Source: an uncultured Acidobacteriota bacterium (GTDB lineage Bacteria; Acidobacteriota; Thermoanaerobaculia; Multivoradales; UBA5704). From it: a stretch of 64,000 nucleotides of DNA. The notes under the pieces were generated by a model that was not told where the DNA came from, did not search any database, and saw nothing but the letters and a program-made list of their open reading frames with translations. The DNA is taken from contig CAVYRF010000002.1 in the NCBI GenBank assembly GCA_963770895.1, positions 288,001-352,000 on the forward strand. The letters are read 5' to 3'. Shown here piece by piece: positions 38,473-58,856 of the stretch (its first letter is position 1; each line of letters starts with the position of its first letter). Both the position numbers and the translations under genes were made by a program.

Positions 38473-40908
<2,436 letters not shown>

Positions 40909-40982
40909 TCAGAATCTCGCGGCCCGCGCCGGTCGCTGTTGCCGTGGCGGCGGCGCGGGTCTGGCCCCAGGAGGTGAGCTCG

Positions 40983-41816
40983 TTGGAATCGACCCTTGAC
41001 GTCGCGGACATCCGCCCGCGCCACTTCGGCTGGGAGGTCGCCGATCGCGTGGCGGTCGTCACCCTGGACCGGCCGGAGCGCCGCAACCCGCTCACCTTCG
41101 AGTCGTACCGCGAGCTGGCCGCCACCTTCCACGCCCTGGCCCACGTGCCCGCCGTGCGCGCCGTGGTGCTGACCGGCTCCGGCGGCAATTTCTGCTCCGG
41201 CGGCGACGTGCACGACATCATCGGCCCGCTGGTGGCGATGAAGCAGGCGGGGCGCATGGACCAGCTGCTCGACTTCACCCACCTGACCGGCGACCTGGTC
41301 AAGGCCATGCGCGGCTGCCCGCAGCCGATCGTCGCCGCGGTCGACGGCACCTGCGCCGGCGCCGGCGCCATCCTGGCCATGGCGGCCGACCTGCGGCTGG
41401 GCACCGCGCGCAGCAAGGTGGCGTTCCTGTTCACCCGCGTCGGCCTGTCCGGCGCCGACATGGGCGCCTGCGCCATCCTGCCGCGCATCGTCGGCCAGGG
41501 GCGCGCCGCCGAGCTGCTCTACACCGGCCGCGCCATGCCCGGCGAAGAGGCCGAGCGCTGGGGCTTCTACAACCGCCTGGCCGCGCCGGAATCCCTGCTG
41601 GCCGAAGCGCGCGAGCTGGCGGCGACGCTCGCCCACGGCCCCACCTTCGCCCACGCCATGACCAAGCGCGCCTTGGACCAGGAATGGAACATGGGCATCG
41701 CCGAAGCCATCGAAGCCGAGGCCCAGACCCAGGCCCTCTGCATGCAAACCGAAGACTTCGCCCGCGCTTACCGCGCCTTCGTGGCGCGCCAGAAGCCGGT
41801 CTTCGAAGGCAACTGA
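40983..41816 (+). CDS. Enoyl-CoA hydratase/isomerase family protein
   Basis: [38 protein letters not shown]; TTG start after GGAGG. Confidence 0.9.
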
Positions 41817-41996
41817 CGACAAGGCTGCGCCAGTGGCCCGCCCGGTTCATTCGCTTGGTAGTCGCGCCGCAATCCGGTCCTCTGGCCAGGCGCGCCGACG
41901 CAGGCATAGTCGAACGTATGTCGAGGAGGCGCAACGCCGCCAGAGGGCCGGAGGGCAAGCGAATACCATGCGAATTAATCGGGCGGGACACTAGTC

Positions 41997-43340
41997 ATGG
42001 CCGACACCACCTTTCTTGCCTGGCCGTTTTTCGAAGACTCCCACCGCGCCCTGGCGCGCGACGTTGCCGCCTGGTGGCGGCAGCACGGCGCCGCGCTGCC
42101 CGACGGCGAGCCGCGCCACGACGACGGCGCGACCCGCGGCAGCGCGCCGCACGCCGGCGGGGCGGCCGATCCGCCGGCAGCGGGCGCCGGCGACGACGCC
42201 TGGACCGCCTGCCGGCAGATCGTGCGGCGGTTGGGCGAAGCGGGGTGGCTGCGCTACGCGGTGCCTTTGGCGGCCGCAGCGCACCCTGCGGGCACTGCGG
42301 ACAGTGCGGAGACCGCGACAGCGGCCGCCGCCGCAACCGTTCCATCGCAGCCCGGCGCGCTCGACGTGCGCACGCTGTGCCTGTTGCGCGAAACCCTGGC
42401 GCGCGGCTCGGCGCTGGCCGACTTCGCCTTTGCCCTGCAGGGGCTGGGGAGCGGTCCGCTGTCGCTCTTCGGGTCCGACGAACAGCGGCGGCGCTACCTG
42501 CCGGGGGTGGCCGCCGGCACCGCCATTCCGGCGTTCGCGCTGTCCGAGGCGGCGGCCGGCTCCGACGTCGCCGCCATGCGCACCACCGCGCGGCGCGCCG
42601 GCGACGGCTACGTGATCGACGGCGAGAAGACCTGGATCTCCAACGCCGGCATCGCCGATTTCTACGTCGTGTTCTGCCGCCTGCCCGAAGGCGGCGAAAG
42701 GTCGTACGCCGCCCTGCTGGTGGATGCCGCCAACCCCGGCTGCAAGGTCGTCGAGCGGCTGCACGTGATCTCCCCCCATCCGCTCGGCACCGTGGCCTTC
42801 ACCGGCTGCCAGGTGTCCGAAAGCGCCCTGGTCGGCGAGCCCGGCGGCGGCATGCGGGTGGCGCTGGCGACGCTCGACGTGTTTCGTCCCACCGTCGGCG
42901 CCGCCGCCCTGGGTCTGGCGCGCCGCGCCCTCGACGAGGCCGCGGCCCACGCCCGCACCCGCCAGGTCTTCGGCCAGGCGCTGGCCGCCCACCAGCTCAC
43001 CCAGGCCAAGCTGGCCGACATGGCCACAGCCGTCGACGCCAGCGCGCTGCTGGTCTACCGCGCCGCCTGGCTGCGCGATCGCGGCGGCGCCTCGCGAATC
43101 ACCCGCGAAGCGGCCATGGCCAAGCTCTTCGCCACCGAAGCGGCGCAGCGCGTCATCGACGACGCGGTGCAGATCCTGGGCGCCCGCGGCGTCGCGGCGG
43201 GCGCACCGGTCGAGCGCCTCTACCGCGAGATCCGCGCCCTGCGCATCTACGAAGGCGCCAGCGAGATCCAGCGCCTGGTCATCGCCGGCCAGCTGCTCAA
43301 GGCCTGCGCCGCGGAGGCACACGATGCCGACCCCCGCTGA
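41997..43340 (+). CDS. Acyl-CoA dehydrogenase family protein
   Basis: [41 protein letters not shown]. Confidence 0.92.
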
Positions 43341-45084
43341 CCGCGATCGCCCGGCCGCCGCCGACCCGCCGGGCACTGCCGCGCCGAACACCGCGCCCGG
43401 CGGCCCCAGCGCGCACCGCGATCCGTTCTGCCGCCAGGCCCTGCCGCCGCGCGAGCTGTGGCCCGAGATGCGCTACGGCCTGCCCGAGCTGGCCTATCCC
43501 GACCGCCTCAACAGCGCCGTCGAGCTGCTCGACGCCCGCGTCGCCGCCGGCGACGGCGAGCGCATCGCCATCCACTCCCCCGGCGGCACCTGGACCTATC
43601 GCCAGCTGCTGGCGACTGCCAACCGCATCGCGCACGTGCTGGTCGAAGACCTGGGCGTCGTGCCGGGCAACCGCGTGCTGCTGCGCGGCGCCAACACGCC
43701 GATGCTGGCCGCCTGCTGGCTGGCGACGCTCAAGGCCGGCGCCGTGGCGGTCACCACCATGCCGCTGCTGCGCGTGCGCGAGCTGACCTACATCGCCGAC
43801 AAGGCCGAGGTCCAGCTGGCCCTGACCGACGCCCGCGTCGCCGCCGACTGCGAGCAGGCCATGCGCACCCGCGGCGACGGCGCCCCGCGCCCCGGCGCCC
43901 GCGTCGTCCACTTCGGCGGCGCCCAGCCTGAGCCGGCGGCTGACGGCAGCGACCCATCGGAATCGCCGGCAGCCGGCGGCTCCAGCCTGGACGACCTGGC
44001 CCGCGACAAGCCGGACGCCTTTACCAACTGCGACACCGCGGCCGACGACGTGGCGATCATCGCCTTCACCTCCGGCACCACCGGCAAGGGCAAGGGCACG
44101 ATGCACTTCCACCGCGACATCCTGGCCGCCGCCGACTGCTTTTCGGCCCACGTGCTGCGGCCGCGCCGCGACGACATCGTGTGCGGCTCGCCGCCGCTCG
44201 CCTTCACCTTCGGCCTGGGCGGCCTCATCCTCTTTCCGCTGCGCGTCGGCGCGGCCACCCTGCTGCTCGAGCAGGCGGCCCCGCCGCTGCTGCTGCAGGG
44301 CATCCAGCAGCACCGCGCCACCATCTGCTTTACCGCGCCCACCGCCTACCGCGCCATGTGCGCGCTGCTCGCCACCCACGACGTGTCGAGCCTGCGGGAA
44401 TGCGTCTCGGCTGGCGAAACGCTGCCTCGCGCCACCTTCGAAGCCTGGCAACAGGCCACCGGCATCAGGATCATCGACGGCATCGGCTCGACCGAGATGC
44501 TGCACATCTTCATCAGCGCCGCCGGCGACGACATCCGCCCCGGCTCGACCGGTAAGGCCGTCCCCGGCTACGAAGCCCGCGTCGTCGACGACGCCGGCCG
44601 CCCGCTGCCCCCCGGCACCGTCGGCCGCCTGGCAGTGCGCGGCCCCACCGGCTGCCGCTACCTGGACAACCTGGAGCGCCAGACCGCCTACGTCCAGGAC
44701 GGCTGGAACTTCACCGGCGACTCCTACCTCCAGGACGCCGACGGCTACTTCTGGTACCAGGCGCGCACCGACGACATGATCATTTCCGCCGGCCACAACA
44801 TCGCCGGCCCCGAGGTCGAAGCCGTCCTGCTGGAGCACCCCAAGGTCCGCGAATGCGGCGTCGTCGGCACCCCCGACCCCGACCGCGGCCACGTCGTCAC
44901 CGCCTTCGTCGTCCTGCAACCCGGCGCCGAGCCCGGCCCCGCCACCGTCAAAGAGCTGCAGGACTTCGTCAAGGCCGAGATCGCCCCCTACAAATACCCG
45001 CGCCGCATCGAGTTCCTGGAAGCCCTGCCGCGCACCGAAACCGGCAAGCTCCAGCGCTTCCGCCTGCGCGAGAGGCCCTCATGA
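43324..45084 (+). CDS. abmG: 2-aminobenzoate--CoA ligase (benzoate-CoA ligase family)
   Basis: [46 protein letters not shown]; cluster context. Confidence 0.85.
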
Positions 45085-45181
45085 CGCCGCGGCGCCGCCA
45101 CCGGCGCGCGCAACCTTTCCGCAGGCCGCGGCGCGTCCGTCGGCGCCAACGCCTCGATCTCGACCCATGCGAGCAGGTCCC

Positions 45182-45607
45182 ATGAAGCCGCCCACGCCCG
45201 ACCCCTTGCAGCTGCTGCAGCCCGCTGGATGGCCTCCGCCGCAAGGCTACGCCAACGGCATCGCCGGCCGCGGCCGCCTGCTCTTCATCGCCGGCCAGGT
45301 CGGCTGGAACCCCGTCACCTGCCTCTTTGAAACCGACGACCTCGCCGTCCAGACCGGCCAGGCCCTGGCCAACCTGGCCGCCGTCCTGCACGCCGGCGGC
45401 GCCCAGCCCCACCATCTGGCCCGCCTCACCTGGTACATCACCGACCGCGACGCCTACCTGTCCGCCCGCCCCGCCATCGGCGCCGCCTACCGCGCCCACC
45501 TGGGCCGCCACTACCCCTCCATGTCGCTGGTCGTCGTCGCCGCCCTGCTAGAGCCCCGCGCCAAGGTCGAGATCGAAGCCACCGCCCTCATCCCCGATCT
45601 GGCTTAG
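45182..45607 (+). CDS. RidA/YjgF family protein of the abm cluster
   Basis: LQPAGWPPPQGYANG, FIAGQVGW, AKVEIEATA. Confidence 0.88.
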   Translation: MKPPTPDPLQLLQPAGWPPPQGYANGIAGRGRLLFIAGQVGWNPVTCLFETDDLAVQTGQALANLAAVLHAGGAQPHHLARLTWYITDRDAYLSARPAIGAAYRAHLGRHYPSMSLVVVAALLEPRAKVEIEATALIPDLA

Positions 45608-46917
45608 GAGTCGCGCCAAAATAAGTAGACTATATTTTGCGACGCTTGGGCCGAATGGAGTAGTTCCAATCGCCGTGAAAGCTGGCGCGCTTCAGGTTGA
45701 CGGAAGCGAGTTCCTCGTCAGCCACGGCAACGCCGGTTGGATAGCTCCCCCGGTCGAGCTCGGCTCGGATCTTCAGGCCAGTCTTGGTGGCCGTGCTGGC
45801 GATCAAGTTGATGATGATGTCGTGACTGATCAAGGGTTTGCCTCGCCAGTTCTCGGTGATATGGCAGAACATACGATGCTCGATCTTGTTCCATTTGCTG
45901 GTGCCAGGCGGGAAGTGGCAGACGTGGATGGTCAGGCCAAGTTGGGTCGCCAGGTCCTGCAGCGCCACCTTCCAGAGCCGGCAGCGACTGCCGTTGCTGC
46001 CGCCGCCATCGGCGGTGATCAGCAACCGGCGTGCGTTGGGGTAGCGAGGAGATCCCATCTTGCGCCACCAGCGGCGGATCGCTTCGACGGCGAACCGGGC
46101 TGTGTCGTGGTCCACGCCGACGCTCACCCAACCCTGATTCGAACTCAGGTCATACACGCCATAGGGAATGGCCTTGCCCAAATCCGGGTCCACGAAGTCA
46201 TAGATCTTGACCTTGTCGGGATCACCCTTCGGCTGCCATTCGCGGCCGACATTCTTGAATGCCCCGACCAGTTCCTTCTTTTTCGTGTCCACCGAGATGA
46301 CCGGTTGACCGTGCCTCTGAAACGCCTGCACTGTGTGGCTAATGTGCTCGAATTGGGCGTTGCGGTCCGGATGAGAGGCACCCTCCAGGGTCTTGCGGTT
46401 GCTTTGCAGGCTGTAACCTGCCGCGTTGAGAAGCCGACCTACGCTGCGCGGGCTCAGGGTGTGTCCCTGGCGCGTCAAGGCCGTGGCCAACTGGGTCGTA
46501 CTTTTGCAGGTCCACCGCAACGGAGATTCCGGGTCGCCGCGCGTCACCGGATCGACCAAGTGCTCCAACGCATCCAGCAGGGCAGGGTCATTCTCGGTCA
46601 GTGCCTTGCGCCCGCCACCCGGCCGACGAACCCGCAAGTCCAACGGCGCGTCAGGATGAGCTTGGCGGTTCTCCAACTCCGCCAAGCCTCGCCGGATCGT
46701 ATTCGGCGACATGCCAATCGCGCCGCTCACCGCACGCACTCCGCCCCAGCCATAGGCCCGGGCCTCTGAAGCCGCCCACTGGCGCCGCATTCGCTCATCC
46801 ATCATCGGCGCAAGCGAAAGGTACTTCACTGCGATCTGCTCCGCCGAGGCGGGATCTTGCATGCCCCACAGTAGAGCACAGTCCTACAATTTCGTCAAGT
46901 TATTTTGGCGCGACTCC
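45607..46917. mobile_element. ISAzo13-family insertion sequence, 1311 bp
   Basis: Perfect 18-bp terminal inverted repeats ggagtcgcgccaaaataa (45607-45624) and ttattttggcgcgactcc (46900-46917), flanked by TTA on both sides. Confidence 0.92.
45630..46862 (-). CDS. ISAzo13-family DDE transposase
   Basis: DERMRR.WAA.EA, RGDPESPLRWTCKS, ISVDTKKKEL, ITADGGGSNG, PPGTSKWNKIEHR. Confidence 0.95.
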   Translation of the reverse strand: MQDPASAEQIAVKYLSLAPMMDERMRRQWAASEARAYGWGGVRAVSGAIGMSPNTIRRGLAELENRQAHPDAPLDLRVRRPGGGRKALTENDPALLDALEHLVDPVTRGDPESPLRWTCKSTTQLATALTRQGHTLSPRSVGRLLNAAGYSLQSNRKTLEGASHPDRNAQFEHISHTVQAFQRHGQPVISVDTKKKELVGAFKNVGREWQPKGDPDKVKIYDFVDPDLGKAIPYGVYDLSSNQGWVSVGVDHDTARFAVEAIRRWWRKMGSPRYPNARRLLITADGGGSNGSRCRLWKVALQDLATQLGLTIHVCHFPPGTSKWNKIEHRMFCHITENWRGKPLISHDIIINLIASTATKTGLKIRAELDRGSYPTGVAVADEELASVNLKRASFHGDWNYSIRPKRRKI

Positions 46918-47202
46918 TTAGGTCCCAAACGCGCGGCTGGGCCGGCCCAGCCGCGCGCCGCAGTGAACGGTCACTGCGCGCCGTGCCTCAGGTGTCGCAC
47001 GCCCCACTTTTGAAGATACTGCAGCGATCAAACCCCTGAGCGAGCGCAGCGGCACCGTTGGGAAAATCCGCGGCGTGTCCGTCTGAACCGTCATAGACCC
47101 GGGAGCGATAGGCGCCCAGGCTGACCACCACGCGAAATCAGGGTTGGTCTGCTCCGCTCGGACCCTTTCCGCTTCCTCCACTCCTTGAAGAGGGAGAGTG
47201 CG

Positions 47203-48069
47203 ATGCGATCATCCATGCGGTTGCTACTTCTGGCGTTTCTCGGAATCTACGGACTTGGGTGCGCCAGCCTGGGAGTGCAGCCTGCGCGACCGGTAGCTGC
47301 AGCAAAGGAACTGGATGGGCTGACGGGCTACTTCAATGAAGCCGCCGTCGGCACCTGCGCCGGCGAGGCTGATGCCAAGACGGCTCGCAACTGCCGCGAC
47401 AGCTTCGTGTATGGAAGAATCCACGCCTATGACCTGGAGCTGACCCTCTTCGAGGACAAAATCACCAAGCTCTCGCAGGATTACCACCTGATCGGCGATC
47501 TCCTGCTCGGCGGTCTAAGCGGAGCCGGAACGGTTGTAAAAGGTGCTCAAACCAAGAGCATTGTCGCCGCGCTGGCCACACTCGTCACCGGGGCAAAAAG
47601 CTCCGCCGACTCAGACCTGTTCTTTCAGAAATCGGTTTCTGCGTTGGTCAACCGAATGGAAGCACTGCGCAAGCAAGCTCTTTTGCCAATTCAAGCTGGA
47701 CTTGTCAAAGATGCCACGCTGTACCCTCTCCGCCAGGCCCTTCTCGACGTCGAGGACTACTACAAGGCAGTCAACCTGATGCAGGCGGTCGCAAGCATCG
47801 ACCAGGACTCAAAACAGATGGACTCTGCAGCCACATCGCAGAAGAACGCCATGCTTAACCTCACTTTTGGCGACGATCAGAACAGCACCTTGCTGCGGAA
47901 TTACTGGGCACCCAATGGTGTCCTGAACAAGGACCATGAGAAGGCCCTGAATGACTGGCTCTCCAAGAACGTAACCTCACCACCGGACATCGCGAGCTTC
48001 ATACACGGCAGCATCTACACCACCTCTCGCGCCAAGGCGGTAGCCGAGGTCGTCAATAAGACCCCATAA
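47203..48069 (+). CDS. Hypothetical lipoprotein
   Basis: Lipobox-like GLGC after a hydrophobic stretch; GGGAG Shine-Dalgarno; codon usage less GC-biased than core genes. Confidence 0.75.
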   Translation: MRSSMRLLLLAFLGIYGLGCASLGVQPARPVAAAKELDGLTGYFNEAAVGTCAGEADAKTARNCRDSFVYGRIHAYDLELTLFEDKITKLSQDYHLIGDLLLGGLSGAGTVVKGAQTKSIVAALATLVTGAKSSADSDLFFQKSVSALVNRMEALRKQALLPIQAGLVKDATLYPLRQALLDVEDYYKAVNLMQAVASIDQDSKQMDSAATSQKNAMLNLTFGDDQNSTLLRNYWAPNGVLNKDHEKALNDWLSKNVTSPPDIASFIHGSIYTTSRAKAVAEVVNKTP

Positions 48070-49966: not shown

Positions 49967-52918
49967 TCACGCGATCGCGGCGGCCGGCGGTGCGGGCGGC
50001 GGCATGGGGCCGCTCACCGGAATGGTGGTCGCGGCGCCGCTCGCCTTCTGCTCCTCCAGGTATTCCTTGATGCGCTCGATGTAGTCGTCAAAGTCGTCGG
50101 GGGCCGCGCTGCCCCGCCCCGCCATCGCCTGCACCGCGTCGTCGCCCAGGGCGCGATAGCTTTCGAACTGCGATTCGCTGAACCACTGGTCGGCGGTCGA
50201 CTCGTGCGGGAAGGGCTTGGATTCGCGGGCGTAGTTTTCCACGTCGAAGGGCGAGCCGTCGACGATCGAGGGCTTGATGTAGATGAGCGTGCCGTCGACG
50301 CCGGTGGGGTCGACCGCGCTGTACTGGATCCTGGCCACCGCGCAGTAGCGGCCGCCTTCGGCCGGCTGCCCGCTCTCCTGCTTGGGATAGATGCGGACGC
50401 GGCTGTCGAACACGATCGGCACGCCGAAGTCGATACGGATCTTGCGAATGGCGTTGCCGAGATCGTCAAAGGCATAGGACGGATCGGCGCCGGCATCGCT
50501 GACGATGATCGTGTGACAGCGCCGGCGCACCATCTCGTAGATGCCAAGGTCTTCGAAATGGCCGCCGTCCGACAGGCTGACGTACGGATGCTGGTCGTTG
50601 GTCAGGCCGAACGCCTCGGCGATCAGCACCAGCGCCGAAAACCGCGGCCCCGTGCGTTTGTAGGTCGGCATCCGCCCGACGTCTTTGGGATTGCCCAGCC
50701 AGATTCCCAGCCGCACGTTGAACAGCGCCATGATGAAGGTGATCGCCGGCGACGTGGTGTACATGCCCATGTTGGGATTGGCGGCGGCGCCCGAGGTGGC
50801 GACCGCGGTGCCCAGCGTCAAACCTTTCTGGCCGCCGTATTCGACGGTGTCGCGGTAACCCAGCTCGGCGGAGCCGCAATGCAGCGGCGTGGCGGTAAAG
50901 CTTTCGGCCTTGCGCTGCTGCCACGCCAGGTCGGAGCCCGACACCAGATTGAGCGAGATGTTGACCACCGGGAACGGCCGGTTGGCGGCGAGCGACGCCA
51001 TCGTCACGTTGTCGTCCGGATCGAAGCCGGTGAAGGGGTTCGGCCGGCGGTCGGGGTTGCTGGCGCCGGGGTAGGCGCGGATCAGCCGGTTGCGGTAGCC
51101 CGCCTGCATCGAAAAGCGGTTGACGTTGACCGGATAGCTGATGGCGACCCCCGCCACCAGCAGCGCGATCACCGCGATCAGCAGGTGGGCGGGCGTACCG
51201 GTGTAGGGCGGCACGTAGAGCCACCCCGGCGCCGTCGGGTCCAGCAGGCTCGCCGCCGTCGCGACGCCATCCGGCCAGATGAAGCCGAGCAGCGCCTGGC
51301 CGCCCCACGACAGGCAGAGGATGAGCGCCACCACGAACAGCGGCGCCGCCAGCGCGAAGACCATCTTGCTGACCAGGCTCGGCTCGCCCTTCTCCTTGTT
51401 GGCAGGGGTCGAGCCGGCCATGCCGAACTTCGCCACCAGCGCCCCCAGACCGCCGGCCGAAATGAGCGCGCTCAGCTGTGCCGCGGCGGTGGTCAGCAGC
51501 GAGGATGCGAACAGCACCAGGCTGCTCGCCGCCATCCATACCACCAGCACGATCAGCGTCCAGGCGGACCAGCGGGCAAACCACTCGCGGTCGGAATCGC
51601 CGTCGACGACCATCCAGTGCTCGGCCATGCTCGACACCGCGACCAGCACGGTCCTGCCCAGCAGCATCACGCCCATGATCACCGCCGGTCCGAAGATCAC
51701 GAACAGCGGCATCTCATTTTCAAACAGCGGCCGCAGCATGCCCTTGAGCACCAGCTTGTAGATGAGCGTATCGACGGCGCCGGCGGCGAGCACCGAAAAG
51801 ACGTCCCACAGAAACACCTTGAAGCGGCGGTGCATGAACAGGGCGGAAGCGAGCAACGCCGCCAGCGGCAGCACCAGCGCCCAATAGGCGCAATAACGGA
51901 GCAGCACCAGCGTCGGCACGTTCGGCAGGTCCTCGGCGTACGCCTGCACACACCCGAGCAGCAGCGGCAGCGCCGCCAGCCTGGGCAGCAGCGCCAGCGT
52001 CAGGTAGTGCGTGGTCCACTTGCCATGCGGGCCCTTGCCCCTGCCGCCGCTGTCGCGCAACAGGCTCATGAAGAACAGGCCGATGAACTCGAAAGCTCCG
52101 GCGATGTAAAGCAGGTGCAGCGGCTGCTGCGACGTCGGCCAAGTGGCCACGGCCAGCAGCGGCAGCAGCAACGGCGCCGTCAGCAGCGGCAGCAACACCG
52201 CCCAATTGAGCAGGATGTTGCGCAGCACGATGGCGACCATCGTCCAGGTGTCGGCCGACAGCACACCCAGGCGCGGCGTCAGGTAGTTGCTGTACTGCCG
52301 CAGGTGGGTGAGCGGCTCCGGTTCCGGCTGGGAGGGGTCGGTCGGCCGTTCGGTCAACCGGGTGGTCACCGTGTCGATGCCCTCTTCCCGCACCCAGCGC
52401 GCCAGCCAGCTGGAAATGTAGCCACCCCCCGAGACGCTCGACAGGTAGTCGAACTGGCCCAGCAGCCCGAGCCGCGCCATGCCCTGCAGCACGCCCAGGT
52501 TGAAGGTGGCGCTGCGGATGCCGCCGCCCGAAAAACACAACGCCGCCAGCGGCCCTTTCGGCGCCGGCTTGGGAGGCCGCTTTGGCGCCGCCGTCCCGGC
52601 GCCGGCTGCCGCTGGCGCCGCCGGCTTTGCCGCTGTTCCTTGCCCCGTTGCCGCTGGTTCTGCCGGCTTTGCCGCTGTTTCTCGCGCCGCCGTTGCCGCC
52701 GGTGCGTCCGGCATCGCCGCCAGGCGGTGGGTGACCCGGTAGACTGCGGCCTGCTGGGCCGCATCGCTCCCCGGCGGCAGCCCGGACGCCTCGGCCGCCA
52801 CCGCGGCTACGGAGTCCGGCTCGGTCAAGGCAGGGCTGCCGGGCCGCAGGTGCTCCAGCTCGGCCCGCAGCACTTCCCACAGACGCAGGGGCGGTACGCC
52901 CTTCGCGGATTTCGCCAT
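49967..52918 (-). CDS. Polytopic patatin/cPLA2-like phospholipase
   Basis: SGGGIRSA oxyanion loop, SSVSGG nucleophile, DGGHFED acid; many TM helices between Ser and Asp; FPHESTADQWFSESQFESYR. Confidence 0.88.
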   Translation of the reverse strand: MAKSAKGVPPLRLWEVLRAELEHLRPGSPALTEPDSVAAVAAEASGLPPGSDAAQQAAVYRVTHRLAAMPDAPAATAARETAAKPAEPAATGQGTAAKPAAPAAAGAGTAAPKRPPKPAPKGPLAALCFSGGGIRSATFNLGVLQGMARLGLLGQFDYLSSVSGGGYISSWLARWVREEGIDTVTTRLTERPTDPSQPEPEPLTHLRQYSNYLTPRLGVLSADTWTMVAIVLRNILLNWAVLLPLLTAPLLLPLLAVATWPTSQQPLHLLYIAGAFEFIGLFFMSLLRDSGGRGKGPHGKWTTHYLTLALLPRLAALPLLLGCVQAYAEDLPNVPTLVLLRYCAYWALVLPLAALLASALFMHRRFKVFLWDVFSVLAAGAVDTLIYKLVLKGMLRPLFENEMPLFVIFGPAVIMGVMLLGRTVLVAVSSMAEHWMVVDGDSDREWFARWSAWTLIVLVVWMAASSLVLFASSLLTTAAAQLSALISAGGLGALVAKFGMAGSTPANKEKGEPSLVSKMVFALAAPLFVVALILCLSWGGQALLGFIWPDGVATAASLLDPTAPGWLYVPPYTGTPAHLLIAVIALLVAGVAISYPVNVNRFSMQAGYRNRLIRAYPGASNPDRRPNPFTGFDPDDNVTMASLAANRPFPVVNISLNLVSGSDLAWQQRKAESFTATPLHCGSAELGYRDTVEYGGQKGLTLGTAVATSGAAANPNMGMYTTSPAITFIMALFNVRLGIWLGNPKDVGRMPTYKRTGPRFSALVLIAEAFGLTNDQHPYVSLSDGGHFEDLGIYEMVRRRCHTIIVSDAGADPSYAFDDLGNAIRKIRIDFGVPIVFDSRVRIYPKQESGQPAEGGRYCAVARIQYSAVDPTGVDGTLIYIKPSIVDGSPFDVENYARESKPFPHESTADQWFSESQFESYRALGDDAVQAMAGRGSAAPDDFDDYIERIKEYLEEQKASGAATTIPVSGPMPPPAPPAAAIA

Positions 52919-52936
52919 CGCTCCTCCCGTTCAAAG

Positions 52937-54181
52937 CTACGGCTTGGGCGCCAGCCACGGGCGCTTGGCGCCAGGGTAGAAGACCTCTTCGCCGGTCGGC
53001 TCGAAGCGCTGGTTGCCGTTCTCGCGCAGGCGCACGTCCTGCATCGCCTGCATGACGTCGCGGCGGGCGCGGTTGAGGCTGCCCAGCGGCATGTGGGCCT
53101 GGAGGCCGTGCCACGGATTGAAGGTCAGGTTCTGACAGAAGGCGTACTGCTCGGGCGACTGGAAATCCTGCGGTGGGAACTCCATGCGCGCCACCTGGCG
53201 CCAGGGGGAATCCTTGGGGTCCCAGGCGACCAGCGTGTTGTCCAGCGGCTGGCTGTCGCGGCTGCGGATCTGCGCCTTGATGTCGAGGCACATGCCGATG
53301 CCGCCCGCCGGGGCCAGGTCGTCGGCCAGCCGCTCGGCCAGATAGTTGGGATGCGTGTTGTCGTCGGGCGGGGGCGACGTCCAGCGGATCTTGCGGCCGG
53401 CGCAGGGAAAGGCGCCGTACTTGACCGCGTTCTGCGGCCCCTGCGTCGCCTGGATGGCGAACGGCGCCACCGAAAACCAGGTGATGTCGGCGATGCTGGG
53501 GAAGACGTTTTTCCGCTGCACCTGCAGGATGTTATAGAAGCCGCGCGGGTGGCGCAGCAGGTCCCACAGCAGGCGCGGATTGGCCATTGGGTCGGCGCTG
53601 TAGCCGCCGGCGCGGACGGCGGCGAAGAAGTCGTGGAAGTGCCTGACGTTGCCGGCAAAGAAGGCGTTGTGGGCGATGAAGAAGAGGTCCTGGGTGTGCT
53701 GCTCGTCGCCCGGCACCGGCAGGCGCGCGCCGCTCACTCCCACCAGCTTGACCACCATGCCGCGGAAGTCGGGGACGTGATCGTCGGTGACGTGGTTGGC
53801 CGAATTGGAAAAGCGCACCCACGCCTTGTAGACGCGGCCGCCGTCGGGCTTGCCGGCATAGATGCCCAGCCGCAGGTTGGGCGGCAGGTCCGGCTCGACG
53901 GTGAAGTTGGCGCGCACGCAGGCGTTGGCCTTGGGATGGGTGTCGCGCAGGAACTTGGTGGCCCGCCAGTTCTCGTCCGGCTTGATCGTGTCGTTTTGAT
54001 ATTCGTGGTGCAGGATGTCGGTCAGGATGACGACCGTGTCTTCGATCACCGCCGCCTCTTCGTCCTGCGGCAGCGGCCGGCTCTCGGTGTAGAGCGACAC
54101 CAGGATAACCAGCCCAAGCAGCACCACCAATACCACGACCAGCCGCAGAACGATCCGCAACAATTTCTTCCAGCCGCTCAT
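52937..54181 (-). CDS. Membrane-anchored catalase-fold protein
   Basis: RDTHPK, RFSN, DFRGM, FNPWHGL..H.PLGSLNRAR; N-terminal TM helix; Met at the usual proximal Tyr position. Confidence 0.82.
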   Translation of the reverse strand: MSGWKKLLRIVLRLVVVLVVLLGLVILVSLYTESRPLPQDEEAAVIEDTVVILTDILHHEYQNDTIKPDENWRATKFLRDTHPKANACVRANFTVEPDLPPNLRLGIYAGKPDGGRVYKAWVRFSNSANHVTDDHVPDFRGMVVKLVGVSGARLPVPGDEQHTQDLFFIAHNAFFAGNVRHFHDFFAAVRAGGYSADPMANPRLLWDLLRHPRGFYNILQVQRKNVFPSIADITWFSVAPFAIQATQGPQNAVKYGAFPCAGRKIRWTSPPPDDNTHPNYLAERLADDLAPAGGIGMCLDIKAQIRSRDSQPLDNTLVAWDPKDSPWRQVARMEFPPQDFQSPEQYAFCQNLTFNPWHGLQAHMPLGSLNRARRDVMQAMQDVRLRENGNQRFEPTGEEVFYPGAKRPWLAPKP

Positions 54182-54220
54182 CGCTCCATCCTCCCGCGAA
54201 AGCCCGCGCCGGCCGCCCGA

Positions 54221-56125
54221 TTACGAGGCGCCGCGCTTGGCGTCCTTAAGAATCACGTCGGCCGCCTTTTCGCCGATCATGTAGACAGACGTGACGATAA
54301 AAAAGCCCGGAATGCGGGGAAACACCGAGGCGTCGACCACCCGCAGGCCGGATACGCCGTGGACGCGAAAATCGCTGCCCACGACGCCGCCCTGATCGCG
54401 GGCGCCGATCGGGCAGGTGCACGATGCGTGGTGACCCCAGGCGTTGTTGCGCACGAACGTCCTGAGCTCGTCGTCCGTCTGCACGTCGTCGCCCGGCAGC
54501 TCCTCCTTGGCGATCAGGTTGCGCTTCTTCAGGTCGGCGGTCAGGGTGCGCACGTACTTGATGCCTTCGACGACCGAAGCCAGGTCGTCGCCCGCGGTGT
54601 CGGTGCCCTCTTCGAAATAGTGGAAGTTGATCAGCGGCGCCTGGCGCGGATCGGTCGAGCGCAGCACCACCTCGCCGGCGTGGTTCTGGGTGTGCGCCTT
54701 GAGGATCGCCCAGGTCAGGTAGTTGAGGTTCTCGGCGAACAGCGTCGAGTAGGTCGGGAAGTACCCCTTGAACAGGCCGAGCAGCGCAAAGCAGAACAGG
54801 TCGGGCAGCGGCCGCTGCGGCAGCGACTTCTTGATGATCGCCAGGACCGCGCCGTTGGTCGTATAGACCCCCTTGCGCGGCGTCTGCGCCCACTGCTCGT
54901 ATTGCGGATCGCCCTTGGAAAACTTGGCGCCCTTGAGCACCCACCAGGCGGAAAAATTCATCCGGTTGACGACGCCCACCTCGTAACGGTCCTGCAGGTT
55001 CTTGCCCACCGGCAGGTCCACCCGCACCGCGATGCCGAACTGGTCGAGCACGGCGCGCGGCCCGATGCCCGAAAGCATCAGCAGCTGCGGCGTGTTGAAG
55101 GCGCCGCCGCACAGGATCACCTCGCGCGAGGCGCGCACCGTGCGCAGCTCGCCGGCGGCCGTCGCCGCGGCGCCATCGGCCCGGTACAGCCGCTCGCCCT
55201 TCAAGTATTCGACGCCGACGGCGCGCCCGCCGTCGTCGAACAGCACCCGCGTCGCCAGGGCGTCCAGCTCGATGCGCAGCCGGTCCGGGTACTTCTGCGC
55301 CACGTCCAGCAGCCGCTCGCGCGAACCATGGCGCTGGTGGCCGTTGGTGGCGAGCGGCGGATAGCGGATGCCCACGGCGTTGGCTTCGTTCAGCCGCCAG
55401 TCGTTGGGGTCCGCCTGGCCCTGGATCAGCCAGCGCACGCGCTCGAACTTGTCACCCCCTTCGTCCGCGGCGTGGTTGATCGATTCGAGCAGGCATTCCA
55501 CCAGGTCGCGGTCGTCGAAGGCGGCTTCGGGGATCGCCTTTTCGGTGTGCAGCCAGCCCTTCCAGCCGTGCCGCGTGGGGTTGATGCCGAGCTTGCTCAG
55601 CCACCGGTAGGGAATGCGGTGATGGCAGTTTTCCAGGCGCTCGAAGTAGCGGCGCATGGCGTCGGCCTTCCACGAATCGTCACCGGTCGCCGCGGCGATC
55701 TGGTTCCAATCGTCGTTGTGCGGGTAGACGGTGATCATGGCGTTGTGCGCCGTGCAGCCGCCCAACGTGCCGGCGCGGGGATAGAACACGCCGTCGACGT
55801 TGACGCCCTCCCAGGTCTGCCGGTACTTTTCGTCGCGGCGCTGCTGCTCCAGGTCGGCGTAGTGGCGAACGTAAAAGTCCCACTTCATCGCCACGTTCTC
55901 GGTCGAGATGGCGTGGAACACCGGCACGTCGTAGTCGTCCGGCAGGCGGTTGCCGGTCGGATCCAGGGCGTCGCCGCCGGCGAGCCGCCGCGGGTCGCCG
56001 CCGGCCTCCAGCAGCACCACCTTGTGGCCGCTCTCGGCCAAGCGCGCCGCCAGCGTGCCGCCGCCGGCGCCCGAGCCGACGACGACGTATTCGCAATCAG
56101 CCTGGCCTGCGATCTGGTCGCTCAT
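54221..56125 (-). CDS. GMC family oxidoreductase
   Basis: VVGSGAGG, YPRAGTLGGCTAHNAM, GAFNTPQLLMLSGIG, VGKNLQD, WGHHASCT, LRVVDASVFP. Confidence 0.92.
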   Translation of the reverse strand: MSDQIAGQADCEYVVVGSGAGGGTLAARLAESGHKVVLLEAGGDPRRLAGGDALDPTGNRLPDDYDVPVFHAISTENVAMKWDFYVRHYADLEQQRRDEKYRQTWEGVNVDGVFYPRAGTLGGCTAHNAMITVYPHNDDWNQIAAATGDDSWKADAMRRYFERLENCHHRIPYRWLSKLGINPTRHGWKGWLHTEKAIPEAAFDDRDLVECLLESINHAADEGGDKFERVRWLIQGQADPNDWRLNEANAVGIRYPPLATNGHQRHGSRERLLDVAQKYPDRLRIELDALATRVLFDDGGRAVGVEYLKGERLYRADGAAATAAGELRTVRASREVILCGGAFNTPQLLMLSGIGPRAVLDQFGIAVRVDLPVGKNLQDRYEVGVVNRMNFSAWWVLKGAKFSKGDPQYEQWAQTPRKGVYTTNGAVLAIIKKSLPQRPLPDLFCFALLGLFKGYFPTYSTLFAENLNYLTWAILKAHTQNHAGEVVLRSTDPRQAPLINFHYFEEGTDTAGDDLASVVEGIKYVRTLTADLKKRNLIAKEELPGDDVQTDDELRTFVRNNAWGHHASCTCPIGARDQGGVVGSDFRVHGVSGLRVVDASVFPRIPGFFIVTSVYMIGEKAADVILKDAKRGAS

Positions 56126-56135
56126 CGCTCCCCCC

Positions 56136-58595
56136 TTAGAACGTCTTCAGGAACTCGATCAGCGCCCGCTTGTCGTCGTCGCTCAAGGCGGGCTCTTCCT
56201 TGAAGAAGCTGGTGCCGAAGTAGTGGCCGCGATTGACCACGAAGTCGGGACACTTGCTGAGCCCCAGAAGCGGCTGCGCCAGCGGCTTGAACGCGGCCAG
56301 CGCCTGCTCCTCCGTGGGGTTGGCCGGCAGCGTCAGCAGCGCCTTGTTCAGCTTGCCGAGCACGTCGATCAGCTGCGCGTCGTGCCTGGCCTTGGCGTCG
56401 GGGCTCATGTCCTCGGGCACCAGGTCGATGTTGGCGATCAGGTTGACCGGCGTGCCCTTGGGGATCGGCCCGATCTGGATGCCGCCGTTGCCGACGAGCG
56501 ACGGGAACAGCGCCTTGACGATCGGCGCCAGGTCGGGCGCGAAGGACGGCAGGTAGCCGGCGGCGACGCGGAAGTAGCTGGGGACGGTGGTGCGATCGAT
56601 GGTGCCCGGCACCTTGTCGCCCAGCACGCTGTCCTTGTCGCGCTTTTCGGGCCACAGCATCTGTTCGATCGAATCCTGGAAGGAGTCCATGCGCCCGGCG
56701 ACCGACGGCGACGGGTTGAACTTGCCGACGCTGTTGTTGAGCAGGAAGGGGGCCGTGGACCAGGCGCTGATCAGCGAAGCCGGCCGCGTATAGCCGCGCC
56801 CGCCGGCCGGCATCTTGAACTGCCACGGCTCGCCGGTGAAGGGGTTGTGCACCGTGATCTCGCCCACCGAGGGCAGGTCCTTGTAGCTCTGCGAGCTGAA
56901 GTTGTCCCAGATGTTGCCGGCCACGGCGTTGGTCGCCAGCGGGCTGCAGGCGTTGGTCTGCAGCAGCGTCACCGGGATCCGCTGCTCAGTTGACAGGAAG
57001 TTGTCGGTGAGGAAGTCGTCGGCCAGCACGATGTCGCGCATCTGCTTCTTGAACTCGTCGGTCTTGGTCCACGTCCAGTAGCGGTTCCAGCAGTCCAGGT
57101 AGCCGGCGCCGGCGCAGCCGTCGGGATCCAGGCCCTGGGCGGGCTTGGGCAGCTTGCTGGAATGGCAGCGGGCGCAGGTTTCGGCGAACACCACCTTGCC
57201 GCGCGTCAGCTTGGCGGCGTCGGTCGTCAGGTAGGCGGCGCCGCCCGGAGCGTCCTTGAGCAGGTGCGGCGCGGTGGTCGCCAGGAAGAACTGCGCCAGG
57301 CCCACGGTCTGCGCCTCGGTCGCCTGCCAGTAGGAGGAGTTCTTTTCCGCCTTGGCGATCTCGATCGGGCTGATCGGCTTGCCACCCACCAGCGGATTGA
57401 AGTGCAGCAGCCACTCTTCGCTGAACAGGCCGATGTTGATGAAGACGCGGTTGAGGGCTCCCAGCGCCCCCACCGAGTCGCTGCCGTCCTTGAGCACGCG
57501 CGGCGTCCATACCGTGTCCGGCGCCTTGTACAGCTCGGTCAGCGGCCCGTCCTTCACATAGTCGTTGAACTGTTTGTTGCTCAGGTTGCCGCCGGCGATC
57601 GTCTCCTTGCCCCAGCGCTTGGCCATCCCCAGGCGGGCGCTCAAGCCGTAGATGGCATTCATCGTGCGCGGGTTGTTGATGTAGTCGGTCGACACCAGCG
57701 AGGTGTCCAGCGCGCCGGGCCGGGCGGTGTGGAACAGCTGCCACGGGAAGCTGGAAGGATCCTGCTGCCAGCCCAGCACGCGGTCGACCCAGAAGTACTG
57801 CGCGCCGACGTTCGAGCTCAGCTCTTCCCACTTGGGGTGGTTGGGGTCCGCGGGCGGCTGCACCGGGTTCGGCCCGACGTGGCAGAAGCCGCAGGACATG
57901 CCGACCCGGTAGGGCTTCACCAGGCTGTTGGAGTTGTAGTAGGTAGGGTCGTTGTAGTACCGCTCCGCCGACCAGGCTTGCGCCGCCTTCTCGTCGAAGT
58001 CGGGGTTGGGGAACAGGCGCAGGCCGACGATGCCGGTGCCCCAACCGTAGTAGGACCCGACCGGGACGTTCTTGCCGCGGGCGCCGATCTCAACCCCCGG
58101 ATACTTCTTGGCATCTTCGAACGGATCCGGCGGACAGTCGGAACGGCGCTTGTCCAGCCGCAGGCCGTAGCGGTCGGGGTCGGGTCCGGCCGGGGTGTCG
58201 TAGCAGGGCTCGTTGACCAAGCCGAACCAATCCCAGCGGTTGTCGCGGCCGCCCGCGAGCTTGCCCGGATAGGTGGAGACCACCTTCAGCATGTCGAGCG
58301 TGCCGACGCTCGCCTTGGCGATGTAATCCCAGAAGCGGTCGTTGCCGGCGGTCCAGACGATCCAGGTGTTGCGGCCCTGGATCTCCGCCGGCTGCAGGTG
58401 CCGCACGACGGCGCCGTTGCGGCAGCCGCCATCCATGCACTGGAAGTAATCCTCGTCGGCCCCCTTGAGCGAAGCCGCGTCGCGGCCGGCGCGCATCGCT
58501 TCGTCCGTCACATCCTGTTTTTTGGGGCAACCGAAAAGGGCGATCAGGCAGAGCGGCAAGACACAGCAGAATACGCGCGCGACGAAACGAGTCAT
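56136..58595 (-). CDS. Di-heme c-type lipoprotein, RoxA/MauG-like
   Basis: Lipobox LFGC; heme motifs CGFCH and CARCH; SLISAWSTAPFLLNNSVG; C-terminal NRGHYF...ALIEFLKTF; ATG at 58595. Confidence 0.8.
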   Translation of the reverse strand: MTRFVARVFCCVLPLCLIALFGCPKKQDVTDEAMRAGRDAASLKGADEDYFQCMDGGCRNGAVVRHLQPAEIQGRNTWIVWTAGNDRFWDYIAKASVGTLDMLKVVSTYPGKLAGGRDNRWDWFGLVNEPCYDTPAGPDPDRYGLRLDKRRSDCPPDPFEDAKKYPGVEIGARGKNVPVGSYYGWGTGIVGLRLFPNPDFDEKAAQAWSAERYYNDPTYYNSNSLVKPYRVGMSCGFCHVGPNPVQPPADPNHPKWEELSSNVGAQYFWVDRVLGWQQDPSSFPWQLFHTARPGALDTSLVSTDYINNPRTMNAIYGLSARLGMAKRWGKETIAGGNLSNKQFNDYVKDGPLTELYKAPDTVWTPRVLKDGSDSVGALGALNRVFINIGLFSEEWLLHFNPLVGGKPISPIEIAKAEKNSSYWQATEAQTVGLAQFFLATTAPHLLKDAPGGAAYLTTDAAKLTRGKVVFAETCARCHSSKLPKPAQGLDPDGCAGAGYLDCWNRYWTWTKTDEFKKQMRDIVLADDFLTDNFLSTEQRIPVTLLQTNACSPLATNAVAGNIWDNFSSQSYKDLPSVGEITVHNPFTGEPWQFKMPAGGRGYTRPASLISAWSTAPFLLNNSVGKFNPSPSVAGRMDSFQDSIEQMLWPEKRDKDSVLGDKVPGTIDRTTVPSYFRVAAGYLPSFAPDLAPIVKALFPSLVGNGGIQIGPIPKGTPVNLIANIDLVPEDMSPDAKARHDAQLIDVLGKLNKALLTLPANPTEEQALAAFKPLAQPLLGLSKCPDFVVNRGHYFGTSFFKEEPALSDDDKRALIEFLKTF

Positions 58596-58856
58596 GGCAT
58601 CGCTCCTCTGGCTGGACCACAGATGGGCAGCGCCTGGCGTGACAGGGTGGACCGTCCCCCGGCTTTGCCCGATCTTGCGTTCTTGGCTTGTCCAGAACAT
58701 TACCATATCCGCGCGATCACTGCAAGAGGATCTGCACGACAGCAAGGCAGGCAAGACAGCTACACCACGCGGGCGGTGCGAACCCCCCGGCGGGCACCCG
58801 GCGTCGGCGCAGGCCGCCGGGCCGCGCCGCCCGCGCGGCGAACGACGGGCGAACGG

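Follow-up and report, generated by a model that had tools for sequence, protein, structure and literature searches.

A four-gene cluster for a di-haem lipoprotein, a GMC flavoprotein, a catalase-fold protein with a proximal methionine, and a patatin-type hydrolase in an Acidobacteriota genome: a candidate lipid-oxygenation pathway

Introduction

Brash is said to have described, in 2014, a pair consisting of a 10S-dioxygenase and a catalase-related lyase in Nostoc punctiforme. The logic of this arrangement, in which a hydroperoxide-forming enzyme is combined with a converter, is already known from Nostoc, corals, and Pseudomonas aeruginosa (PMC4496055, PMC6377657). The oleate-diol synthase of P. 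aeruginosa consists of PA2077, a 10S-dioxygenase, and PA2078, a 7,10-diol synthase, both of the FadCcp subfamily, and both are large periplasmic di-haem c proteins that were modelled on RoxA (PMC4496055). RoxA itself (PDB 4b2n; NF050033) is extracellular, cleaves polyisoprene, and carries two CXXCH motifs and a C-terminal distal His. The coral catalase-related enzymes, an allene oxide synthase and a hydroperoxide lyase (1u5u), have a short catalase fold with a distal Thr-His pair and three haem arginines (PMC5617202), and each acts together with a haem or iron enzyme that is either its neighbour or its fusion partner. In this study, we analysed a cluster of four genes, designated A–D, that lies in a 64,000-nucleotide stretch of DNA from an uncultured Acidobacteriota bacterium (assembly GCA_963770895.1, contig CAVYRF010000002.1, positions 288,001–352,000; hereafter, the window) and encodes a di-haem c lipoprotein (A), a GMC flavoprotein (B), a catalase-fold protein (C), and a patatin-type acyl hydrolase (D).

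Our best guess is that the cluster encodes a lipid pathway, because its genes co-occur elsewhere, lipases are enriched near A, and relatives of A and C oxygenate fatty acids or convert hydroperoxides. An earlier interpretation of the window, made without database searches (hereafter, the sequence-only reading), had proposed an envelope lipid-oxygenation pathway; co-occurrence, lipase enrichment, and the relatives in the literature speak for that proposal, whereas the four-gene set did not prove to be a conserved unit. Its further suggestion that the product is a signal or a toxin found no support in any of our analyses. The P. aeruginosa system pairs a hydroperoxide maker with its converter, as the present cluster would; it differs in its components, the partners of A being a GMC protein, a catalase-fold protein, and a patatin.

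Results

A Catalase Fold with a Proximal Methionine

A proximal tyrosinate is generally regarded as the ligand that defines the catalase fold. What is new at this locus, and is the part surprising to a specialist, is gene C (52937–54181, minus strand), which encodes a 414-amino-acid catalase-fold protein with an N-terminal membrane anchor and belongs to a small single clade with a fixed proximal Met. Searches with the single sequence of C against Pfam, NCBIfam, and the PDB returned no match. A profile built from 124 homologues found the 33-kDa catalase-related protein of Mycobacterium avium (3e4w; E = 1.3e-21) and the coral allene oxide synthase. The top folds for the structural model of C (predicted local distance difference test, pLDDT, 94.8) included 3e4w (E = 7.9e-15) and 1u5u, and as modelled, C has the catalase core fold without large accessory domains. 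The M. avium protein was the best match of C in both profile and fold, but its residue aligned with the methionine of C is Tyr.

The residues listed for the coral allene oxide synthase in PMC5617202 are R64, R102, R360, T66, H67, N137, and Y353. The first five correspond to Arg79, Arg123, Arg384, Thr81, and His82 of C, which also keeps Arg373. Unlike the coral enzyme, C has Met377 in place of the proximal Tyr353 and Ile169 in place of the distal Asn137; the latter is described as non-essential for catalysis in that report. Like the coral proteins, C has a haem or iron enzyme as a neighbouring or fused partner; it differs in being a lipoprotein or membrane-anchored and in having a GMC protein, not a lipoxygenase, as its fusion partner.

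Among 273 catalase-fold domains, the proximal position was Tyr in 205 and Met in 65. The Met rows, together with two truncated rows, formed one clade (support 0.989) that contained no Tyr member, and the haem arginines and distal His were kept in all of its ungapped rows, Thr81 being present in 54 of 59. The distal Asn was likewise lost in most Tyr-type relatives of C, so only Met377 is special to the C clade. The clade is small: of the best representatives at 50% identity, 149 aligned and 10 of these fall in the clade, and among 400 genomes from a single proteobacterial class, 2 gave Met-level scores. By a rough scan, 56 of 64 members carry a lipobox or a membrane segment. In nine sequences, B is fused to a Met catalase with a membrane segment between the two, and Tyr catalases are fused to RoxA-like di-haem proteins and to an animal-type haem peroxidase. 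No GMC–patatin fusion was seen among the sequences, although no search was aimed at such fusions. In two further sequences (P0142 and P0506), the front of an A-type protein is joined to the back of a Met catalase; these are more likely to be deletion products or mis-assemblies than real fusions. Elsewhere in the window's own genome, C2 carries DyP and DUF2235 genes as well as a catalase-like gene that stands alone and is of a different type.

The Di-haem Lipoprotein

Gene A (56136–58595, minus strand) encodes an 819-amino-acid di-haem c lipoprotein of the bCcP/MauG/RoxA fold, with a lipobox Cys23 and CXXCH motifs at residues 235–239 and 474–478. Both motifs and His791 were invariant in an alignment of 144 rows, and His791 is likely to be the distal ligand of haem 2. 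FadCcp proteins, which are fatty-acid dioxygenases or diol synthases with an inter-haem Trp and an open distal pocket at haem 1, have two CXXCH motifs ∼235–245 residues apart and a C-terminal His as the third haem ligand, a layout that A shares (239; His791); they also have the motif PY(L/F)HNGSV with its His, which A lacks. PA2077 reads PYFHNGSVP here, whereas A reads APFLLNNSV, with Leu619 at the position of the MauG-motif His, and the seven commonest variants in the 144 rows have Leu or Gln. The haem spacing of A, from His239 to His478, is 239 residues; it is 245 and 235 in PA2077 and PA2078, respectively, and 199 in RoxA, so that A resembles the P. aeruginosa pair more closely than RoxA in this respect. 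A is also longer than PA2077 and PA2078 (819 vs. ∼630 amino acids) and is a lipoprotein.

Homologues of A made up 6194 of 8000 scored candidates (homologue clusters), the best 120 of which share 66–89% identity. The structure of A was predicted with AlphaFold from 144 sequences (pLDDT 88.6). Foldseek ranked RoxA (4b2n) first for this model, albeit weakly (E = 2.4e-3; template modelling score 0.28–0.33). In a VIA search against 48161 chains, the top seven were all bCcP/MauG/RoxA-type proteins (Z = 8.5–10.3; next row, 6.0), and the longest structural alignment was with RoxA (364 residues; Z = 9.0; root-mean-square deviation 4.9). As modelled, A therefore has its two CXXCH motifs in the shared core fold and belongs to the bCcP/MauG/RoxA di-haem superfamily. 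At the sequence level, the identity with RoxA was 14–17%, and sequence and profile searches of the PDB gave short cytochrome c matches only, with RoxA at E = 0.91. Pfam and NCBIfam scans gave no RoxA/B/C or RoxA-like match, and A scored 36.3 bits on NF040606, for which the cut-off is 150; because of these results, we place A in a separate family within the superfamily. A search with NF040606, which is not equated here with FadCcp, gave one sub-threshold match in the window's own genome and none in 14 control genomes. The alignment of A with the RoxA-like profile covered 88 columns, too short for mapping pocket residues. That A stays below the NCBIfam di-haem peroxidase cut-off counts against the sequence-only reading.

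A second A+B pair occurs in the same genome (G000:C1:2043138–2047301; L091:10142–14263), with 42% and 50% identity and with no catalase or lipase neighbours.

The GMC Flavoprotein and the A+B Core

Gene B (54221–56125, minus strand; 634 amino acids) encodes a GMC flavoprotein whose subfamily is linked to A. GMC_oxred_N and GMC_oxred_C matched it at 76 and 105 bits, respectively, above the cut-off. B aligns with choline oxidase-type GMC enzymes at the catalytic His and at the GGCxxHN flavin-attachment segment, where His127 of B corresponds to the choline oxidase His that we take to be the flavin-attachment residue. The catalytic His566 was kept in all 56 relatives compared. B differs from choline oxidase (∼30% identity) in having an extra His (His565) directly before the catalytic His, and in having Phe (Phe609; Phe in 55 and Tyr in 1 of the 56) at the second active-site position, where His or Asn is expected. 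The B protein in the window has no signal peptide, and this holds for most B proteins. A twin-arginine signal was found in 5 of the 56, two of them from one genome; as the signal is present in one branch and absent from most B proteins, B may act on either side of the membrane. This branch comprises L059:12414, L066:12392, L067/L069:12444, and L073:12472.

To count neighbours, we used the best 80 of 104 A loci in GTDB, with tblastn and hidden Markov model counts; 52 of these loci were long, i.e., ≥ 20 kb. By tblastn, B was found within 65 of the 80 loci. Among 41 related genomes, which are kin and not independent, B (E ≤ 1e-60) was present in 16 of the 18 A-positive and in none of the 23 A-negative genomes. 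A+B is the core of the cluster and its sole near-constant unit.

Gene D and the Lipase Slot

Gene D (49967–52918, minus strand) encodes a polytopic patatin/cPLA2-type acyl hydrolase of 983 amino acids, with the motif Gly-Gly-Gly-x-Arg (131–135), a nucleophile Ser163, and Asp784 in DGG; nine hydrophobic segments lie between its two catalytic halves. The Patatin model scored 32.4 bits (cut-off, 27.7). D homologues made up 3776 of 8000 candidates, and SGGGIRSA and VSGGG were found in 120 and 119 of 121 D-family rows, respectively.

In 15 of the 80 loci (11 of the 52 long ones), D and A were no more than 10 kb apart, and some tested patatin was near A in 13 of the 52. For comparison, a lipase-like gene occurred in 1.3% of random 22-kb windows of the cluster's own genome, a baseline drawn from that one genome only. 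D was ≤ 10 kb from an A-family match in 6 of 18 related genomes. The slot is not always filled by the same family. In L093, L094, and G004, the gene after C encodes a 435-amino-acid patatin with a signal-like N-terminus and weak similarity to D (upstream of B in G004, the match to A was limited to its final 56 codons), and on Rhizobium plasmid pRL11 a third, unrelated membrane patatin follows B. The lipase slot is thus real but swappable. The strongest reason to suppose that a free fatty acid is the substrate is that acyl hydrolases unrelated to one another, and placed on one or the other side of the membrane, repeatedly occupy this single slot. An independent clustering of three of the protein types occurs on the rhizobial plasmid pNGR234a of strain NGR234 (L132:7911–13964), where a patatin lies with a di-haem peroxidase and a catalase, all from subfamilies other than those in the window.

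The protein classes that the sequence-only reading had assigned to A–D agree with the motif, fold, and domain matches described above. It had also reported non-canonical active-site residues in three of the four proteins, and this is true of A (Leu619), B (Phe609), and C (Met377 and Ile169). Local decay was ruled out as the origin of these residues, which are conserved as family traits in relatives of A, B, and C. D is not non-canonical, since its catalytic motifs are intact.

Partners Recur and Are Exchanged

Of the 80 GTDB loci, 24 have a catalase-like gene near A, 24 have a DyP gene, and 15 have D; all four families are present in 2, where the catalase belonged to a subfamily different from that of C. 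A fixed four-gene operon was ruled out by this count. A gene-neighbourhood comparison, which the sequence-only reading had named as a check, therefore gave a divided result: the genes recur together elsewhere with their partners exchanged, whereas the complete set is not conserved. The cluster in the window is one version of a modular cluster. The 23 catalases near A that scored > 100 bits were of another subfamily, with Asn for the distal His and Tyr kept, which travels with DyP and an unnamed 430-amino-acid protein. In related genomes, A was present in 18 of 41 and a close C in 1 of 40.

Viewed from C, the association is closer. The Met was visible in 18 of 22 metagenome loci; 8 of these 18 have A, B, or RoxA-like neighbours. 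The order was A-B-C-patatin in L093; B-C-patatin in L094, where the contig begins within B; A-C-B in L099, L101, and L102; A followed by a fused B-C in L106; D-A followed by a fused B-C in L109; and RoxA-like, C, RoxA-like in L103. Two GTDB genomes that carry a stand-alone C each hold two RoxA-like genes elsewhere, compared with 13 of 300 genomes from the same class; the two carriers count as one event because they share the same gene context. On a tree of 96 A sequences, Met partners appeared at three separate places.

Other modules and neighbours were also noted. In about 20 loci besides L023:2047–6119 and L079:14879–18927, a module beside A+B contains a DyP-type peroxidase, a 430-amino-acid membrane protein, a 145-amino-acid protein, and an Asn-distal catalase, and within the broader catalase group there are fusions to the DyP-type peroxidase and to the 430-amino-acid membrane protein. 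Three loci (L078:14695–18264, L130:6996–11843, and L131:5304–11840) contain an NADH:flavin oxidoreductase and two tandem RoxA-like proteins flanking a small membrane protein, often with DUF2235. A DUF4331 protein lies beside A in 12 of the 80 loci (L054:6264–9058 and 11 others), usually with a partner of 404–419 amino acids, which was a TPR protein in the sole copy scanned.

Discussion

We propose that the cluster would make and tailor an oxygenated fatty acid at the inner membrane. D would hydrolyse phospholipid and free a fatty acid, which would then cross the membrane; the catalytic halves of D are probably cytoplasmic because it has no signal peptide. A, as a lipoprotein facing the periplasm, would bind O2 at haem 1 and form a fatty-acid hydroperoxide in the manner of P. 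aeruginosa PA2077, with haem 2 (His478/His791) acting as an electron relay. C, anchored on the same face as A, would break the O–O bond at a haem held by Met377 and give a cleavage, rearrangement, or reduction product, the likely analogues being the coral and Nostoc catalase-related enzymes. B would oxidise the resulting alcohol or aldehyde, perhaps yielding H2O2. In favour of this pathway are the long structural alignment of A with RoxA and its haem spacing, the haem-pocket residues that C shares with the coral enzyme, the enrichment and exchange of lipases near A, the NGR234 cluster, and the catalase fusions. We regard this reading, with its four steps taken together, as evenly balanced between right and wrong.

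Several observations weigh against this pathway. A is remote from every tested dioxygenase (36 of 150 bits; Foldseek E = 2.4e-3) and is without the MauG-motif His present in PA2077; MauG, bCcP, and BthA tie with RoxA in Z in the VIA search; and one of the conserved residues His289, Met312, and His398 could close haem 1. In C, loss of the tyrosinate should weaken the usual peroxide chemistry, and a thioether ligand should disfavour the usual high-valent chemistry; a speculative route for a Met-ligated haem would be ferrous one-electron O–O cleavage. The neighbourhoods are also not uniform: DyP near A is as frequent (24 of 80) as any lipase, 17 of the 52 long loci have none of the tested partners (catalase, DyP, lipase-like, or RoxA-like), D is present in 9 of the 23 related genomes without A, and 10 of the 18 Met metagenome loci, several of them short contigs or near-identical contexts, have no di-haem or B-type neighbour.

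Some of these observations would fit a redox pair with a substrate other than a fatty acid, in which B oxidises an alcohol or a sugar and feeds H2O2 or electrons to A, a MauG/BthA-like peroxidase of an aromatic compound, a polymer, or a protein, with C, DyP, and the lipases as optional helpers. The near-constancy of A+B alone (65 of 80 loci; B in 16 of the 18 genomes with A and in none of the 23 without), the equal Z scores of MauG, bCcP, and BthA, and the DyP partner in 24 of 80 loci all favour such a pair, and the twin-arginine signal of 5 of 56 B proteins would place those in the compartment of A. However, most B proteins have no signal and a membrane segment parts B from C in the fusions, and three unrelated patatin families in the downstream slot would be left unexplained. 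We consider this redox pair rather unlikely, although it is the main rival of the fatty-acid pathway. The lipase enrichment and the fusions would be accommodated equally by membrane repair, with D excising peroxidised acyl chains, A and C reducing or cleaving hydroperoxides, and B removing aldehydes. In PMC4496055, PA2078 is described as detoxifying a fatty-acid hydroperoxide, and stand-alone C lipoproteins occur amid housekeeping genes. The large di-haem relatives so far tested nevertheless add oxygen, and the patchy distribution (18 of 41 relatives have A, and 1 of 40 has a close C) is more like that of a specialised pathway; repair is an unlikely explanation.

C might also be no peroxide enzyme at all, but haem-free or a plain carrier of electrons or O2, with C and D as passengers of a shuffling A+B cluster. 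The absence of both the proximal Tyr and the distal Asn and the scatter of partners over the A tree are in line with this idea. Against it, no ungapped Met-clade row has lost the distal His or any of the three haem arginines, Met is fixed in all 65 scored members, and B-C fusions recur, so we judge it very improbable. Returning to the fatty-acid pathway, its full form would make C the first catalase-fold enzyme with a Met-held haem, acting on the fatty-acid hydroperoxide supplied by a family of di-haem dioxygenases that is unstudied and thousands strong, within a modular bacterial oxylipin pathway extending across the inner membrane. We advance this full form tentatively, as somewhat more probably wrong than right.

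In a search of the open-access literature, we found no description of this gene set or of a Met-ligated catalase, and no paper on the A+B core. A natural clade with a fixed Met offers a direct test of the role of the proximal ligand. The A+B core is very widespread (6194 A homologue clusters among 8000 scored), and if it makes oxylipins, bacterial oxylipin chemistry would be far broader than the P. aeruginosa and cyanobacterial examples. Genetic work could begin immediately in Rhizobium johnstonii 3841, a culturable strain that has homologues of A and B (RL_RS32250 and RL_RS32245) together with a patatin.

Gene Order and Flanking Regions

The open reading frame (ORF) coordinates bear out the four co-oriented genes of the sequence-only reading, with gaps of 10 (A-B), 39 (B-C), and 18 bp (C-D). 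Its GGAGCG motif is present 5′ of all four starts, but its role as the ribosome site is less secure: the motif is 5 nt away from the start of A and touches the ATG in B, C, and D. Because of this contact, the G-rich run directly before GGAGCG is more likely to be the ribosome site of B–D. On the minus strand at 58591–58606, upstream of A, the shared GGAGCGATG starts a two-codon frame whose stop overlaps the start codon of A. Glycogen-type genes lie upstream of the cluster and an ArsR/NIPSNAP pair downstream; these flanking genes are on other strands or distant enough for the four-gene block to be self-contained. A scan for promoters and terminators gave no promoters and three terminator-like sites, none of them on the coding strand and fewer than in shuffled sequences.

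The genome has a GC (guanine plus cytosine) content of 71%, and many of the named close homologues found in homologue searches with A and D are from Thermoanaerobaculia. At 45630–48069 of the window, the GC content dips to 0.61; this region contains a 286-amino-acid lipoprotein-like ORF that has no Pfam match and a 410-amino-acid ORF that is presumably transposase-like. We take the translations from 38473–45607 to be a flavin monooxygenase/Old Yellow Enzyme fusion, an enoyl-CoA hydratase, an acyl-CoA dehydrogenase, a CoA ligase, and RidA, a gene set that presumably resembles the anthraniloyl-CoA monooxygenase pathway.

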